Source of the DNA: a virus
Taxonomy: Duplodnaviria > Heunggongvirae > Uroviricota > Caudoviricetes
DNA length: 42,087 bases
Virus record (IMG/VR): IMGVR_UViG_2565956712_000007
Reading direction: 5' to 3' (one strand)
A model generated the notes under the pieces. The model searched no databases. It saw only the letters and a program-made list of their open reading frames with translations, and was not told the DNA's origin. A program made the position numbers and the translations under genes. Positions 7,803-32,929 of the stretch are shown here, in pieces (position 1 is the first letter of the stretch; every line of letters starts with the position of its first letter).

Positions 7803-7894
7803 TTTACATCGCACTCCTCTTGTGCCATAGTAATCGGGCACTGGCAAAATCCAGTGCCGGGATTGGCGTCCCGGATTACTACAGAGGCACATAT

Positions 7895-7915
7895 GCCGCA
7901 TAAGCGGTTTTTTTT
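7895..7915 (+). terminator. Intrinsic terminator in the ant leader
   Basis: Short GC stem GCCGC-ATAA-GCGG followed by T8. Confidence 0.5.
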
Positions 7916-8068
7916 ATGTGTAAAGCGCACCTATTCTATGGTGGGCTGTGTGGGGGCACCGAAAGGTGCGCCGGGTCCTTTGTAGCCGGTTACGCCAACC
8001 CTGCACAGTTCACCACCAACCGATTGGCGTCGGTAGTGGTGATTAACCTAACTACAAAGGTGATCACT

Positions 8069-10556: not shown

Positions 10557-10628
10557 GTCGTTAATTCCTATACGTAGTTTTACGATACTGAAGCCCTGAC
10601 GGTCTGGCCACCGTTGGGCTTCGCTGTT

Positions 10629-27385: not shown

Positions 27386-27462
27386 GTGGCATTAGCTCAG
27401 TTGGACAGAGCAACCGCCTTCTAAGCGGTTGGTCGCAGGTTCGAATCCTGCATGCCACGCCA
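27386..27462 (+). tRNA. tRNA-Arg (anticodon UCU)
   Basis: Hand-folded cloverleaf: 7-bp acceptor GTGGCAT/ATGCCAC, D-stem GCTC/GAGC, anticodon stem ACCGC/GCGGT with loop CTTCTAA, T-arm GCAGG-TTCGAAT-CCTGC, discriminator G, encoded CCA. Confidence 0.85.
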
Positions 27463-28173: not shown

Positions 28174-29649
28174 TTAAGCATAGGGATCGTAATCTGTGAT
28201 GGCCTTGCCTTGCTGGTTCTGCTGACCGGGAATTCGCAGACGCTTCGACACAGGGAACGCAAACGTCAGCAGTAGCGCATCGCCTTTACCAGGAGAACGC
28301 CCAAGCCGCTCCTTGATATCTTCCTTCTGTTCGATAATGATTTTACCGTCCACGCGAACTTTGTACTCTGCCGCCGACAGGTCGTCCGCTGTTTCCTGGT
28401 CATCCAGCATGCCGCCCAGCCTCAGCCATGTCTTGCATGAATTGAACATCTCCCCACGCTTGTTGAGCATCTGCGGGTCAGTAGACGCGCCACCGAACGG
28501 AACAAGTTGCCATGTACGACCCCATCCGTCACCGATTGACTTCAAACCGGTTCCGTAACCGAAGTCGATGAACACCGCGTCAGCCTGATACTGGTCTTCA
28601 AAGTCAGCGATACGCTTTGCCATAATCAGATCGTCAGTGGTCTTGTTGCCAGTCCACAGCACCTTACTGTGCAGCCCCTGCCGCAGGTATATCACAGCGT
28701 CATCAACGCCTGAGTATGCCGGGTCAACGCCGATTATCACCGGAGCATGTGCAACCTGCGCAGCGGTGACCACCCGTTTCATTGCCTCGTCAGTAAGTCC
28801 GGTAGGGATAAACTGCAATTCAGATGCATCCGGGAATATGCCGCGCACACGGATTTTAACGAAGTCGCTGTCTTCCCCGTAGTCATCAACCCATTTCTGC
28901 AACTGCTGTTTGTTGGTGCCTTCCACCGTCCGGCTGTCAATCTGCGCAGTTTTCCAGCGGTGTTTATATTTGCGGAAACATTCGCGGAAACGTCCGGTAT
29001 TACGCGTCGGGTTTCCGAACGCCACCCAGATAATCTCAGTGTCTTCGTCCGTTAGCGCACCCTCGGCAACTTCCCACACCAGATCCGCAATGTTCGACGC
29101 TTCATCGAATACCACGATGATGCGTTTGCGCTCGTTGTGTAGTCCGGCGAATGCCTCAGTGTTGTGCTCAGACCAGGGTATTGCGTCAGCTCGCCACCGC
29201 TTGTCGTGTCCAGGATCATTGCTGTACATCGCGGTAGCGGTACAGGTAAACCAGTCTTTCGTGATAGCAAGGTTCGACCACTTGATAATTTCCGGCCAGG
29301 TCTTCGTTCGTAGCTGGTTGTCGGTGTTGGCGGTCACCACAACCTTACAATCCTCGCAAGTGGACATGCCCCAGTTGATCAGCATTGAGATGAATGCGGA
29401 TTTACCAATACCGTGACCCGAAGCGCGTGCCAGCATAAGCGGCTGATAGCGCGTCTCTGGATTCTGCAGGTGATCACGTATCTCTCGGAACGCATCAGCC
29501 TGCCACTGACGTGGACCGGTGGCATGTGCCAGTTCAGTCCCATCTTCCCCCCACGGGAACGCATAGAGGGCATAGCCAAGCGGATCGTGAGTGAACCCTG
29601 CAATATCCTCGATTAACTGCTCTTCAGGAGATAACGCTGTATCTGTCAC
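28174..29649 (-). CDS. Terminase large subunit
   Basis: Walker A-like SGHGIGKS; 491 aa; overlaps small-subunit gene by 4 nt. Confidence 0.85.
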   Translation of the reverse strand: MTDTALSPEEQLIEDIAGFTHDPLGYALYAFPWGEDGTELAHATGPRQWQADAFREIRDHLQNPETRYQPLMLARASGHGIGKSAFISMLINWGMSTCEDCKVVVTANTDNQLRTKTWPEIIKWSNLAITKDWFTCTATAMYSNDPGHDKRWRADAIPWSEHNTEAFAGLHNERKRIIVVFDEASNIADLVWEVAEGALTDEDTEIIWVAFGNPTRNTGRFRECFRKYKHRWKTAQIDSRTVEGTNKQQLQKWVDDYGEDSDFVKIRVRGIFPDASELQFIPTGLTDEAMKRVVTAAQVAHAPVIIGVDPAYSGVDDAVIYLRQGLHSKVLWTGNKTTDDLIMAKRIADFEDQYQADAVFIDFGYGTGLKSIGDGWGRTWQLVPFGGASTDPQMLNKRGEMFNSCKTWLRLGGMLDDQETADDLSAAEYKVRVDGKIIIEQKEDIKERLGRSPGKGDALLLTFAFPVSKRLRIPGQQNQQGKAITDYDPYA

Positions 29650-30242
29650 TGATTACCATCCTGACGTTCTTTGAGTCGCTTCCTGGCTGCTGCTATGCGA
29701 TCAGCAATTGTCACATTCACATTAACATCCAGACGTTCTTTGAATGCGTTGACATCAACATGCTTACCAATCAGCTCAAGGTTCTTCACCTTGTCAGGCC
29801 ATTTAATTTTTTTGAGGATTGTCTCTATTGAATCCTCGTTCATGTTCATGATGGTCGATGACAGATCAAAGCCACTAAGCGTAGTGCGCCAGATTTTCGG
29901 CCACTCACGGATTGGTTTAAGGCTCCCATCGTCGTTGAGGATGTCGATCACGTCCATCTGGTCGATCTCCACCAGGCGCATGAGAACGTAATCAGCACTG
30001 ACACGCATTCGTTTGTTGCGCTCCTCCATCAACTCGGCAATCCGTTTCTGAATGCGTTCATCGCGCATCATGACACTGGCTTTAACTGCCGCTGTATTTG
30101 GGGAGAATCCTGCGTTAATCGCAGCCTGAGTCTGGTTTTCAGGCGTTTTGATGTATGACTGGCAATAAGCCTCCTGCATTGCTGTGAGCGGCTTAAATTG
30201 CGTTGATTTGCGTTTATAGGTTTTAGGTTCAGCAGGCATCAT
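29646..30242 (-). CDS. Terminase small subunit (start probably the ATG-ATG at 30242/30239, not the track TTG at 30320)
   Basis: Terminase_2-like region LTAMQEAYCQSYI...AAINAGFS; upstream 78 nt hold an operator-like site and a terminator hairpin. Confidence 0.7.
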   Translation of the reverse strand: MMPAEPKTYKRKSTQFKPLTAMQEAYCQSYIKTPENQTQAAINAGFSPNTAAVKASVMMRDERIQKRIAELMEERNKRMRVSADYVLMRLVEIDQMDVIDILNDDGSLKPIREWPKIWRTTLSGFDLSSTIMNMNEDSIETILKKIKWPDKVKNLELIGKHVDVNAFKERLDVNVNVTIADRIAAARKRLKERQDGNQ

Positions 30243-30258
30243 AACCACCGTGGTAATT

Positions 30259-30275
30259 GTTACCGTTGTGGTAAT
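30259..30275. promoter_or_regulatory. Operator-like site GTTACC-GTTGT-GGTAAT in the terminase leader
   Basis: Inverted half-sites, 5-bp spacer. Confidence 0.5.
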
Positions 30276-30280
30276 AGTAC

Positions 30281-30311
30281 CATGCAAAATAAAGCCGCCA
30301 TAGTTGGCGGC
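30281..30311 (-). terminator. Hairpin terminator upstream of the late operon (tR'-like)
   Basis: GCCGCC-N6-GGCGGC followed on the minus strand by UUUAUUUUG. Confidence 0.55.
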
Positions 30312-30352
30312 AGTATTCAAAATCCATCAAATTCATCATGCATAATCTACTC

Positions 30353-30364
30353 GTGACATGTCAC
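30353..30364. repeat. 12-bp perfect palindrome GTGACATGTCAC (copy 3)
   Basis: Exact 12-mer overlapping the stop of gene 30361..30702, about 40 nt before the hairpin. Confidence 0.9.
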
Positions 30365-30702
30365 ACTATTAATTTCGTTTCATGCCAGCCTTTAGTCACC
30401 CAGCATTGCGAGTCACCATTACACGGGCATGAATTAACTGGAACTCTCTCGCCGCACTTACCGCAACGTTTTCTGCTGATCGATTTTATACGCCCGCGCA
30501 CGCGTGCATCATCCTGGCGGATCAGTAACGCTATATACTCACCAAATTCGTAAGGCGCACGCCCGGGGCGACGCGTGGCACAGTTACGCTCCAGCATTTC
30601 AATTTCCTGAGCATCAAGCACAATCTCCAGCTTACGCACACCAGATGCAGCTTGTCTGGCTCTCTGAGCGGCTTTGCGCTCTGCTGCTGATTTAGCCATC
30701 AA
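30361..30702 (-). CDS. Small basic protein with C-terminal Cys cluster (zinc-ribbon-like); candidate late regulator
   Basis: CGKCGERVPVNSCPCNGDSQC; last gene before the late operon. Confidence 0.5.
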   Translation of the reverse strand: MMAKSAAERKAAQRARQAASGVRKLEIVLDAQEIEMLERNCATRRPGRAPYEFGEYIALLIRQDDARVRGRIKSISRKRCGKCGERVPVNSCPCNGDSQCWVTKGWHETKLIV

Positions 30703-30973
30703 TATTTACCTTTATCGCGAACACCTTTACCGGTTTATCACCGAAGTGCGGATGTGTGATTGTCTTGATTTCATATCCGTCATACGGAATATCAATTCTG
30801 CGGCTGGAATCGTCGCGCTTCGGATATCCCTTTGTGATAATCAGGCGGTCATACTTACGATTAACGAGGCGTTTATTCCAGTAGTCATTGCACAGGCGAT
30901 ACTCTTCCGTTTTCTCCCCGCGAATCATGGCATCGAAGTATTCACCTTTGACGGCAAGTTGCAGGTTAGTCAC
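30692..30973 (-). CDS. ASCH / DUF3850-like small protein
   Basis: KGEYFDAMIRGEKTEEYR resembles PUA-like ASCH fold proteins. Confidence 0.5.
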   Translation of the reverse strand: MTNLQLAVKGEYFDAMIRGEKTEEYRLCNDYWNKRLVNRKYDRLIITKGYPKRDDSSRRIDIPYDGYEIKTITHPHFGDKPVKVFAIKVNIDG

Positions 30974-31640
30974 GGTTAACCTCCTGCGGCGGCTCCGGTA
31001 GCGGCATCCAGAACAAGGCGTTCCCTAACCACGATAAAGTGCCGTCGCTCAACTCCACGTATTCCCCTTGTACCTGTCCTGCCATATACTCGCCGTGCTT
31101 TGAATAAATTAAAATCCAATCATCTTGAGGGGGCATTCGCTCACTACAGCTTATCCAACCATCCGGAGTTACCGGATAGTTGCCAGCCAGTCTACGCAAA
31201 ACAGCCTTAACAGCCTCAATACGGTCATCATCGCAATTTTCCAGCGTATCTATGCGGTCGAGCATGATGATGGCGTTATCAATATCAGGATTGCCGGTCC
31301 ACTCATTACCGCGATTGGATTCGGCAGCCTGGTTGCGCATAATCTCAGGCGTAAGCTCTTTGTAAGCATAAGCAAGAGGCTCTGATGCATTATCCGGCAC
31401 AACCGACGCAGGCGCGGCAGCATAAACAGGAATAACGTCCGGTTGCTCTTTATTGCTTTCATCCGTTAAAGCCCAGAATAATTTTCCAGCCGGATGTTTG
31501 AAAATATAAGCAACTGGATCTGCTTCCAGCGATGCCAGTGCAATTTCATAAGCCCGGCGTTCAATATTGTCTCGAACGTCCAGGCTGCTGATACGCTCTT
31601 TGATTTCTTTAATCAGTTCTTTGTCGGTGAAAGTGGTCAT
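30966..31640 (-). CDS. Hypothetical phage protein with DUF551-like C-terminus
   Basis: AAAGGAGA RBS 6 nt before the ATG at 31640; C-terminal ...WMPLPEPP; track start 31766 likely too far upstream. Confidence 0.55.
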   Translation of the reverse strand: MTTFTDKELIKEIKERISSLDVRDNIERRAYEIALASLEADPVAYIFKHPAGKLFWALTDESNKEQPDVIPVYAAAPASVVPDNASEPLAYAYKELTPEIMRNQAAESNRGNEWTGNPDIDNAIIMLDRIDTLENCDDDRIEAVKAVLRRLAGNYPVTPDGWISCSERMPPQDDWILIYSKHGEYMAGQVQGEYVELSDGTLSWLGNALFWMPLPEPPQEVNRD

Positions 31641-31641
31641 A

Positions 31642-31833
31642 TCACTCTCCTTTAGTGCGAAAGTGGTTTTTCCTGCGGTTTTGTGCTGCGCTTCTGTTTC
31701 GCCAGACACCGTAAAAACGAATAGAGGAACACCCCCTAAAACCCAGATATCTATAGTAAATAACAAGCCGATTTGAGATACGGATACGCTGCCCGGGCTT
31801 TGCTATCAGCATCTTTGCCTTACGGTTTTTCAT
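31642..31833 (-). CDS. Small basic ORF (63 aa), paralogous N-terminus MKNRKAK
   Basis: ATGA overlap with upstream ORF; shares 19-bp 5' end with the 32006 ORF. Confidence 0.35.
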   Translation of the reverse strand: MKNRKAKMLIAKPGQRIRISNRLVIYYRYLGFRGCSSIRFYGVWRNRSAAQNRRKNHFRTKGE

Positions 31834-32006
31834 CGCACTGCGTACCCCTTCTCTCGTCTGTTCCGCGACGCGGTGGGTTTATAGTTAAATGCGAATACCA
31901 CCCTACCAAACATGCCGATCACCGCCCGTTTGTGATTGCTGATTGGTAGCTTCTCGTACCCCGTCGAACGCGATAAAAGAAGTAATTTTGCTTTACGGTT
32001 TTTCAT
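31830..32006 (-). CDS. Small basic ORF (58 aa), N-terminus MKNRKAK
   Basis: AGGAGA RBS 8 nt before ATG. Confidence 0.4.
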   Translation of the reverse strand: MKNRKAKLLLLSRSTGYEKLPISNHKRAVIGMFGRVVFAFNYKPTASRNRREKGYAVR

Positions 32007-32628
32007 CGTTTTGTTCTCCTGCGTCTCCTTTGATGCGAATGCCAGTAGCGCGGATTGCATCGATGACTTCAGAAACTTTGTATGCCATTACCGTTTGGTA
32101 ATCATCGTGAAAATCTGTTCGATGAAGCATGCTGCTACGTTCCGGGAGCAGTATTTCCCGCTCCTCCAGTTCTGCTATGCGCTTCTCTGCGGCTCCCAGC
32201 TTCTCGCGCATATCGTCAACGTACTCGACCAGAGAACCGCCAGCAGGAATTTCGCACTCCTCGACCAGTTGGAAGTAGATATCAGCTGCGGCCCGTGTGT
32301 TGCTATGCCTAGCGTCGCCCATCTCACCTTCACGAAGAGCATCGCGTTCGGCGGTAAGATTGGCTATTTTGCTGTCTTTGCCTTCCAGCTCAACACGCAG
32401 CTTCCCTACCGTTAGCGCAATATCCTCGTTCTCCTGGTCGCGGCGTTTGATGTATTGCTGGTTTCTTTCCCGTTCATCCAACAATACCAGCGCGATATCT
32501 GGCGAAAAGTGCTTCATAAAATCGTTAAGCGCATTAATTCGCTGATCGAAAGGCATTACAGGTGCTTCACCAGCAATTTTTGTTTTTTCAGCGATTTCAC
32601 GAAGCTTTTGATAATCAATCTTGCTCAC
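31993..32628 (-). CDS. Hypothetical coiled-coil phage protein (211 aa)
   Basis: Charged, heptad-like repeats; nin-like region. Confidence 0.5.
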   Translation of the reverse strand: MSKIDYQKLREIAEKTKIAGEAPVMPFDQRINALNDFMKHFSPDIALVLLDERERNQQYIKRRDQENEDIALTVGKLRVELEGKDSKIANLTAERDALREGEMGDARHSNTRAAADIYFQLVEECEIPAGGSLVEYVDDMREKLGAAEKRIAELEEREILLPERSSMLHRTDFHDDYQTVMAYKVSEVIDAIRATGIRIKGDAGEQNDEKP

Positions 32629-32929
32629 TGGTTGCCTCCTTTGCTGGGCTTTCTATCTTCTGAGTGGTTGTATCAAACTCAAACAACTTAACCACGTCAT
32701 CAAACAGGACATAATCGCCATCAGAATCTTCTGTCATGTCAGCGCCACAATCCTGACCGCACGAGTCACAACCACCCATATCAAGCTCGTATCGCTTGAG
32801 GTTTGCGATATTTGATAAATTCAGCGCCAGTACAGCCAGGTCATAAACCTCTTCGGCAGTGACATCGCTGTTCAGTCCCATTTCATGGCGATATATGATT
32901 TTTTCTACTCGTTGTTTTGTGATTGTCAT
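32615..32929 (-). CDS. Hypothetical protein (104 aa)
   Basis: Operon position, overlapping coupling. Confidence 0.45.
   Translation of the reverse strand: MTITKQRVEKIIYRHEMGLNSDVTAEEVYDLAVLALNLSNIANLKRYELDMGGCDSCGQDCGADMTEDSDGDYVLFDDVVKLFEFDTTTQKIESPAKEATSEQD

Follow-up and report, generated by a model that had tools for sequence, protein, structure and literature searches.

The two short, highly basic ORFs that stand in tandem in the early region of this prophage are, on the comparative evidence presented here, genuine protein-coding genes, and both belong to phrog_1380, a narrow family confined to Enterobacteriaceae prophages. Considering the evidence as a whole, we think it probable that they are best explained as genuine phrog_1380 paralogs, translated by relay among the early genes, organised as exchangeable cassettes, and presenting a putative nucleic-acid-binding surface. 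The DNA concerned, referred to below as the window, is a stretch of 42,087 nucleotides (IMG/VR record IMGVR_UViG_2565956712_000007) corresponding to a phiV10/TL-2011b-type (Uetakevirus-like) prophage, with structural genes 98.5% identical to those of TL-2011b.

Two basic ORFs of the phrog_1380 family

Both ORFs are encoded on the minus strand and begin with MKNRKAK. ORF-A (32006..31830, 58 aa; MKNRKAKLLLLSRSTGYEKLPISNHKRAVIGMFGRVVFAFNYKPTASRNRREKGYAVR) carries the core "ISNHK" and the tail NRREKGYAVR, and is of the phrog_1380 type found in non-last positions, and ORF-B (31833..31642, 63 aa; MKNRKAKMLIAKPGQRIRISNRLVIYYRYLGFRGCSSIRFYGVWRNRSAAQNRRKNHFRTKGE) ends in QNRRKNHFRTKGE and is of the last-position type. 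Lysine and arginine make up 15 residues of ORF-A and 18 of ORF-B, next to only 2 and 1 acidic residues (D+E), with a predicted pI of 11.6 and 11.9, respectively (family range 10.4–12.0, median 11.7). The sequence-only reading had described two small, Arg/Lys-rich ORFs in tandem with a common start, and this description is confirmed, as is the duplicated 5′ coding segment that it had pointed out. This segment is a 22-nt repeat with one copy at the ORF-A start (31987..32008, minus strand; CGATGAAAAACCGTAAAGCAAA; family D2, 95% identity) and one at the ORF-B start (31814..31835, minus strand; CGATGAAAAACCGTAAGGCAAA), the two being identical at 21 of 22 positions, and at 19 of 21 nt when only the stretch coding for MKNRKAK is considered. 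Across the 42-kb window there are exactly two occurrences of the 21-nt pattern coding for MKNRKAK, vs. none in 100 shuffles.

Matches to the phrog_1380 profile run along the whole of both proteins (ORF-A: E-value 5.8e-23, residues 1–58 on profile positions 1–60 of 62; ORF-B: E-value 4.5e-12, residues 1–63 on positions 1–62 of 62), and the family HMM recovers them with E-values of 8e-21 and 3e-27, respectively. The family signature consists of an N-terminal M[KN]NRKA[KR]-h-L, a central [RK]-h-S-N-[RH], and a [KR]-x-S-A-A-Q-N-R-W-K-N-H stretch near the C-terminus, and all three motifs used to define membership (M[KN]NRKA[KR]xL, [RK]h[ST]N[RH] and [ST]A[AS][QR]NR) are found in both ORFs; variation is located in the hydrophobic core between the motifs and in the last 4–10 residues. 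Catalogued members, which include PhiV10p50 and p51 (phiV10), pMIN27_09 (Min27), VT2-Sap08, F365_gp16 (TL-2011b) and gp057 (RCS47), share these three motifs with the window ORFs, as well as their genomic position and junctions. The window differs from them in its pairing of core type 1 followed by core type 2, and in an Arg replacing the Trp of QNRWKNH in ORF-B. At this position (codon 54, 31672–31674, minus strand) ORF-B reads AGG (Arg), and 54 of 75 family sequences read TGG (Trp), a residue also found in most last-position copies; as judged from the sequence, replacement of this near-invariant Trp could reflect a relaxed constraint on that copy.

When 5.8 billion protein clusters were searched with the profile, 174 homolog clusters were matched; these come without exception from Enterobacteriaceae prophages (hosts Escherichia, Salmonella, Citrobacter, Enterobacter and Klebsiella) and are all named "hypothetical" or "prophage protein." An exhaustive HMM scan of 1.84 billion representatives at 50% identity gave 54 matches. 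In a scan of 185,579 species-representative genomes the family turned up only once, and since this sole match is Citrobacter braakii, there is no broad taxonomic signal. Among phage records, 146 of 50,697 include a member, in every case annotated as hypothetical protein, and these carriers include 933W/EDL933-Stx, Min27, Stx2-86, phiV10, TL-2011b, D6 and RCS47. The exact ORF-A protein has been deposited from 95 contigs as "hypothetical protein," and the exact ORF-B protein is absent from a collection of 15 billion proteins. The neighborhood of the more distant members includes no constant partner, and is made of small early genes of no known function.

Database annotation of these genes varies from genome to genome. 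PGAP annotates neither ORF-A nor ORF-B in NZ_CP033635, a twin genome with 99.4% identity, and for RCS47 and TL-2011b the RefSeq annotation is limited to the A-like copy. L0068 of 933W has been assigned a GTG start and overlaps, out of frame, an unannotated B-like ORF; PhiV10p51 has a 5′-extended start; and several database "homologs" are frameshift fusions with neighboring genes (e.g., P0142, P0144 and P0125). The literature yielded nothing specific to either the motif or the PHROG identifier, and no ribosome-profiling or proteomic report covering ORF-A or ORF-B was found in it.

The evidence for coding status comes from 125 family ORFs (76 distinct nucleotide sequences) gathered from 80 IMG/VR loci, four reference loci and the window. 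The sequence-only reading had proposed a comparison with related prophages, in which reading frames might have turned out not to be conserved; the annotated frame is open in 76 of 76 distinct sequences, with 0 stops, vs. 1.5–3.9 stops per sequence in the other five frames, and it stays open down to about 30% identity among family members. The pooled ratio of non-synonymous to synonymous polymorphism (pN/pS) is 0.41 in the annotated frame, vs. 0.61–1.93 in the other frames. A pN/pS of about 0.4 indicates only moderate constraint; within groups of the same core type, the values range from 0.05 to 0.45, with variable sites concentrated at third codon positions. An antisense gene was considered and rejected, as the reverse frames carry stops (pN/pS 0.61–1.93).

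Codon usage at the motifs adds to this picture. Five codons (AGC, AGT, TCA, TCG and TCT), of both the AGY and TCN classes, encode the invariant Ser in the central motif; six different codons are used for the Arg beside it, CGC, AGG, AGA or CGT for the Arg of QNR, and 4–6 codons at the Arg/Ala positions. The motif residues are thus kept across differing codons, which corresponds to a conservation at the amino-acid level and not merely of the DNA. The motifs are also retained in members with unrelated flanks.

Junctions, coupling and cassette shuffling

Three stereotyped junctions delimit the pair in the window. The entry junction (CGCAGGAGAACAAAACG; 32007..32023, minus strand) includes a Shine-Dalgarno sequence AGGAG at 32020–32016, 9 nt before the ATG of ORF-A. 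The middle junction (GAGAAGGGGTACGCAGTGCGATGA; 31830..31853, minus strand) encodes the ORF-A tail EKGYAVR and its stop, together with a weak Shine-Dalgarno (GAAGGGG), and ends in the ATGA overlap at 31833–31830. The exit junction (CGCACTAAAGGAGAGTGATATG; 31638..31659, minus strand) encodes the ORF-B tail RTKGE, with a Shine-Dalgarno AAGGAG at 31652–31647, followed by the ORF-B stop TGA (31644–31642), a single-nucleotide spacer (31641), and the ATG (31640–31638) of the downstream DUF551-domain gene. Of the two ATGA overlaps described in the sequence-only reading, the one between ORF-A and ORF-B therefore stands, but ORF-B and the DUF551 gene are joined by TGA-T-ATG (TGATATG) and do not overlap.

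All three junctions agree with the consensus derived from 85 sources. The entry consensus (CAGGAGARCAAARCG-ATG) is found ahead of the first family copy in most loci, regardless of the upstream gene; the middle consensus is GAARGGGTACGCAGTRMG-ATGA, and the ATGA overlap is present at 39 of 39 adjacent tandem junctions; the exit consensus is CGCACTAAAGGAGAG-TGA-N-ATG, and genes of at least 10 different families are found downstream of it. In the window, stops overlap or abut the following starts, and AAGGAG lies within the upstream coding sequence, 6 nt upstream of the next gene, as is the case for coupled genes. From this architecture we infer a relay translation of ORF-A, ORF-B and the DUF551 gene: ORF-A would initiate at its own AGGAG site 9 nt upstream, ORF-B would start by termination-reinitiation at the ATGA overlap, and the DUF551 gene would start from the AAGGAG embedded in the last codons of ORF-B.

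The C-terminal tails follow the same logic. The tail R[KE]KGxAVR is shared by all 39 non-last copies, and last copies mostly end in WKNH[LF]R[TI]KG[EDA], i.e., the tail depends on the position of the copy in the array, because it encodes the ribosome-binding site of the next gene. The 3′ end of lambda ea22 (CGCATCAAAGGAGAGTGA, also AAAGGAGAGTGA) is identical to the exit junction.

The array is part of a chain of overlapping early genes comprising an O-like replication gene, P, DUF1064, two unknowns, an Ea22-like gene, ORF-A, ORF-B, the DUF551 gene, ASCH, one further unknown and terS. The DUF551-domain gene downstream (30966..31640, minus strand; 224 aa from the ATG at 31640; PF04448, E-value 6.1e-10) has homologs that begin with MTTFTDKE straight after the same exit junction. 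Upstream, the Ea22-like gene (31993..32628, minus strand; 211 aa; PF13935, E-value 2.1e-18) has its stop at 31995–31993, and its last 14 nt overlap the first 14 nt of ORF-A, a consequence of its reading through the entry junction in a different frame. The end of this gene (31993–32030, minus strand) is not the usual IRIKG[GE]E before the stop, and readthrough gives instead IKGDAGEQNDEKP before the stop; its counterpart in NZ_CP033635 is marked as partial by PGAP. In an alignment, the 3′ end of the Ea22-like gene tracks the RCS47 Ea22 end up to AAAGGAG and then follows the RCS47 ORF0-end/entry junction, a switch which is consistent with a crossover between two junction repeats that would have deleted ORF0.

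ORF0 (phrog_13831) is absent from the window. It is a putative gene for a very basic protein of 51–58 aa (MRVACIGLLPYPTRFW...AAKRRRRAKR) and stands ahead of the array in roughly half of the loci (copies at L002 1584–1760, L003 1357–1533, L004 878–1033 and L092 1149–1325, for example). An ATGA links it to the array, and its Arg-rich tail is the translated entry junction. Elsewhere, the gene before the array is an Ea22-like gene reading through the entry junction, or something else. A further family copy is found in the ECCNB12-2 E. coli prophage, which is otherwise 99.4% identical to the window: this third copy (WP_000797268.1; L001 1458–1643), of core type 0 and with a different exit sequence, lies between homologs of a 181-aa and a 104-aa gene. 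In the window, these two genes abut directly with an ATGA overlap (32926–32929), and no third copy stands between them.

ORF-A and ORF-B share about 35% amino-acid identity (BLASTP aligns only their first 10 residues), and each has far closer orthologs in other phages. At about 35% identity, the two are old paralogs and not the product of a recent duplication; the recent duplication raised as a possibility in the sequence-only reading is therefore contradicted, also by the occurrence of the core types in differing pairings. Arrays contain one copy in 47 sources, two in 36 and three in 2 (85 sources), and the cores cluster into nine types, which are found in the combinations 1+2 (the window), 1+5, 3+5, 7+5, 4+5, 3+4 and 3+4+5. 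Core types 4 and 7 can stand either first or last in the array and carry the tail appropriate to that place, and the genes after the array belong to at least 10 families (N-termini MAIAAS, MALTHR, MPTLFR, MTTFTD and others).

Exchange by recombination at short, partially homologous flanks has been documented for temperate-phage mosaics (PMC3945230), and the array layout fits homologous or relaxed-homologous recombination at short conserved flanks, a mechanism that we infer from the sequences. The conserved 5′ end (MKNRKAK), the 3′ motif (SAAQNR) and the three stereotyped junctions would act as homology anchors, and recombination at these anchors would shuffle core types, alter copy number between 1 and 3, and swap the flanking accessory genes. 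On these comparisons, ORF-A and ORF-B are divergent, exchangeable cassettes.

Several other elements of the window were noted along the way. On its plus strand, Rfam identifies isrK (7838–7914, 76.8 bits), a C4 antisense RNA (7934–8020, 79.5 bits) and a sar RNA (10558–10625, 45.2 bits), which together form the small-RNA set of P1/P7- and P22-type antirepressor (immI-like) control regions; the same scan of the whole window identified no RNA family at the ORF-A/ORF-B region. The window also carries a phage-borne tRNA-Arg (27386–27462, plus strand; anticodon TCT, reading AGA) on the strand opposite to the surrounding late genes. The Arg-rich small ORFs contain some AGA and AGG codons, with one AGA in ORF-A, and one AGA and two AGG in ORF-B. 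A promoter scan compared to the shuffled expectation detected no promoter-like site inside the segment, and the 6 terminator-like sites of the region are not above chance (shuffled 4.0 ± 2.0); one such hairpin followed by a T-run (TAGGGGGTGTTCCTCTA TTCGTTTTTA; 31738–31722, minus strand) lies inside ORF-B and is not significant.

Predicted fold and comparison with known proteins

Two independent AlphaFold2 models, one for each protein and built with a 53-sequence alignment, suggest the same order of elements, alpha-beta-beta-beta-alpha. The ORF-A model (pLDDT 71.7) includes a helix at residues 4–11, strands at 18–21, 26–30 and 36–41, and a helix at 46–56; the ORF-B model (pLDDT 72.9) a helix at 4–10, strands at 16–20, 23–26 and 42–45, and a helix at 49–61. 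In these models, NRKAK is located on helix 1, SN[RH] at the beta1–beta2 turn, and SAAQNRWKNH at the start of helix 2. Double-stranded RNA-binding domains (dsRBD) and HicA-type proteins, which are also alpha-beta-beta-beta-alpha, contact RNA through helix 1, the beta1–beta2 loop and the N-terminus of helix 2. The phrog_1380 models thus resemble them in predicted element order and domain size, and the family's motifs are predicted to fall in the corresponding three places.

No sequence relation to these domains was found. The references used with hhalign (dsRBD, HicA and the lambda Int arm domain) were verified in Pfam beforehand. For dsRBD (PF00035), the hhalign probability was 0.2%, and no match to it in Pfam was obtained among 53 members; for the HicA toxin (PF07927), the probability was 2.1% over 5 columns, again with no Pfam match and with no adjacent HicB-like gene. 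The AP2/integrase arm-type domain was rejected as well (hhalign against the lambda Int arm 0.1%, structural matches not significant); this fold consists of a three-stranded sheet and a C-terminal helix with a basic N-terminal tail, and phrog_1380 differs from it by an extra predicted N-terminal helix. Pfam and NCBIfam searches gave no match for either ORF, Pfam gave none for the 53 members at E-values up to 10, and a sequence profile search of the PDB gave no match either. Structural searches of the PDB with Foldseek returned a best E-value of 0.35 (integrase arm domain 0.43, HicA-type 1whz 0.85). Against BFVD, the best match (E-value 0.019) was an uncharacterised protein of phage Av-05, which is probably a relative of the family given a tblastn identity of 52% over 50 residues, and a "HicA-like" protein was matched at an E-value of 0.065; the HicA-type matches in both databases are at noise level. 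By the tests run, phrog_1380 falls in no known domain family, and the likeness of its models to dsRBD and HicA is one of topology only.

The three polar and basic motifs may together provide a surface for binding nucleic acid, which would be put to use early in infection or following induction. Nucleic-acid binding is compatible with the extreme basicity of these proteins, their conserved N/R/K/Q/S motifs and the compact fold predicted for them, and it had been one of the possibilities raised in the sequence-only reading. Going by charge, motif chemistry and the models, we hold nucleic-acid binding at an early stage of infection or induction to be plausible, if somewhat short of an even chance. 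It is tempting to speculate further that phrog_1380 could be an unrecognised minimal (~60 aa) alpha-beta-beta-beta-alpha nucleic-acid-binding domain, with a dsRBD-like layout and an unrelated sequence, distributed as one-to-three-copy cassettes in temperate enterobacterial phages including Shiga-toxin phages, with the choice of target or partner tuned by the variable cores, and with the conserved N/R/K/Q motifs making contact with RNA or DNA soon after infection or induction. In this complete form, the proposal is in our view unlikely.

The position of the array invites a comparison with the small exo-xis proteins of lambda and Stx phages. The region after ea22 houses a gene set variable in number and kind (PMC8614690), the small exo-xis proteins influence the lytic/lysogenic decision (PMC8614690; PMC10834534), and lambda Orf55, in an analogous position, has a predicted beta-beta-beta-alpha fold (PMC8614690). 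Like Orf60a, Orf61, Orf63, Orf73, Orf55 and Ea8.5, the window ORFs are small early-operon genes beside an Ea22-type gene, and in Stx phages homologous ORFs do lie after ea22, in the exo-xis-type variable region. In the window, however, the array is located downstream of the replication genes, and not between exo and xis. The family HMM detected no member in lambda 28700–31500, where Orf55 scored below zero, and Orf55 was rejected as a relative: it is acidic, as opposed to a family pI of about 11.7, and shows no sequence relation.

Competing readings and significance

Beyond the reading of ORF-A and ORF-B as paralogous early genes with a putative nucleic-acid-binding surface, the junctions themselves suggest that the array could be a recombination linker, in which the conserved ends and junctions would serve as portable anchors and for ribosome hand-over, and the peptide would have little or no function. 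The stereotyped entry, middle and exit junctions beside many unrelated genes, tails that follow position and not core type, a lambda ea22 that ends like the exit junction, an Ea22-like gene that apparently lost ORF0 by a junction-repeat crossover in the window, and the homology-flanked mosaics documented in temperate phages (PMC3945230) would all fit such a linker. However, the variable core is also under in-frame purifying selection, SN[RH] lies far from any junction and is retained through codon switches of non-synonymous distance, and distant members retain the motifs without the stereotyped junctions, so that we regard a linker with an inert peptide as distinctly improbable. The linker and coding-gene readings are not mutually exclusive. 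We give a similarly low probability to the proteins acting on a host or phage protein, as early host-takeover factors or lysis-lysogeny modulators like Orf60a, Orf61 and Orf63. This would be in line with an early accessory array that immediately follows an Ea22-like gene, and with homologs after ea22 in Stx phages, where exo-xis proteins sway the lytic/lysogenic decision (PMC8614690; PMC10834534), but there is no sequence relation to the lambda exo-xis proteins, the net charge of these proteins (+13 to +17 over some 60 residues) would rather be expected of nucleic-acid binders, and no defence or anti-defence model is matched (PADLOC, for ORF-A, ORF-B and ORF0 at E-values up to 0.1).

Two further readings appear very improbable to us. 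The sequence-only reading had mentioned leader peptides. As such leaders, or as translation spacers, the ORFs would matter only through the act of their translation, which would regulate the DUF551 gene or bring ribosomes to it. The tight coupling of both ORFs and the downstream gene, with the exit junction holding the Shine-Dalgarno of that gene, would be expected of such leaders, yet the constraint is at the amino-acid level and the peptide is under purifying selection, RNA folding is not significant on either strand (mRNA strand z −1.57, opposite strand −0.20), terminator-like sites do not exceed chance, the downstream gene varies by locus, family members also occur as solitary copies in unrelated contexts, and a compact fold is predicted for both ORFs; this suggestion was thus not upheld. 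At a comparably slight probability, the ORFs would be spurious, or a recent in-place duplication with no function. PGAP does omit both in the twin genome, and the ORFs are short with an identical 5′ end, but a frame open in 76 of 76 distinct sequences and a full-length phrog_1380 match speak against spurious ORFs, and the ~35% identity between ORF-A and ORF-B, together with closer orthologs elsewhere, means that comparative data already contradict a recent duplication.

Part of this was already known: the family is catalogued as phrog_1380, ORF-A is deposited as "hypothetical protein," and the GenBank record of phiV10 already states that p51 is similar to p50. Tandem overlapping small genes are commonplace in lambdoid accessory regions, so their presence here will not surprise a specialist, and if the proteins are inert, this would be an ordinary pair of small phage ORFs. 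What is added here is evidence of coding status, position-dependent tails, the combinatorics of the cassettes, and a consistent fold prediction, for a family whose annotation is inconsistent or missing.

Prophages of medical relevance, namely the Stx phages 933W, Min27 and Stx2-86 and the O157 phage phiV10, carry this family in their early accessory region. The position-dependent tails of the family would represent coding sequence with a second use, as a ribosome hand-over signal and a recombination anchor, and should be of help to gene-calling programs and in modeling phage mosaicism. Finally, a 60-residue protein is a concrete and cheap target, and could help explain the effect of this region on phage development.
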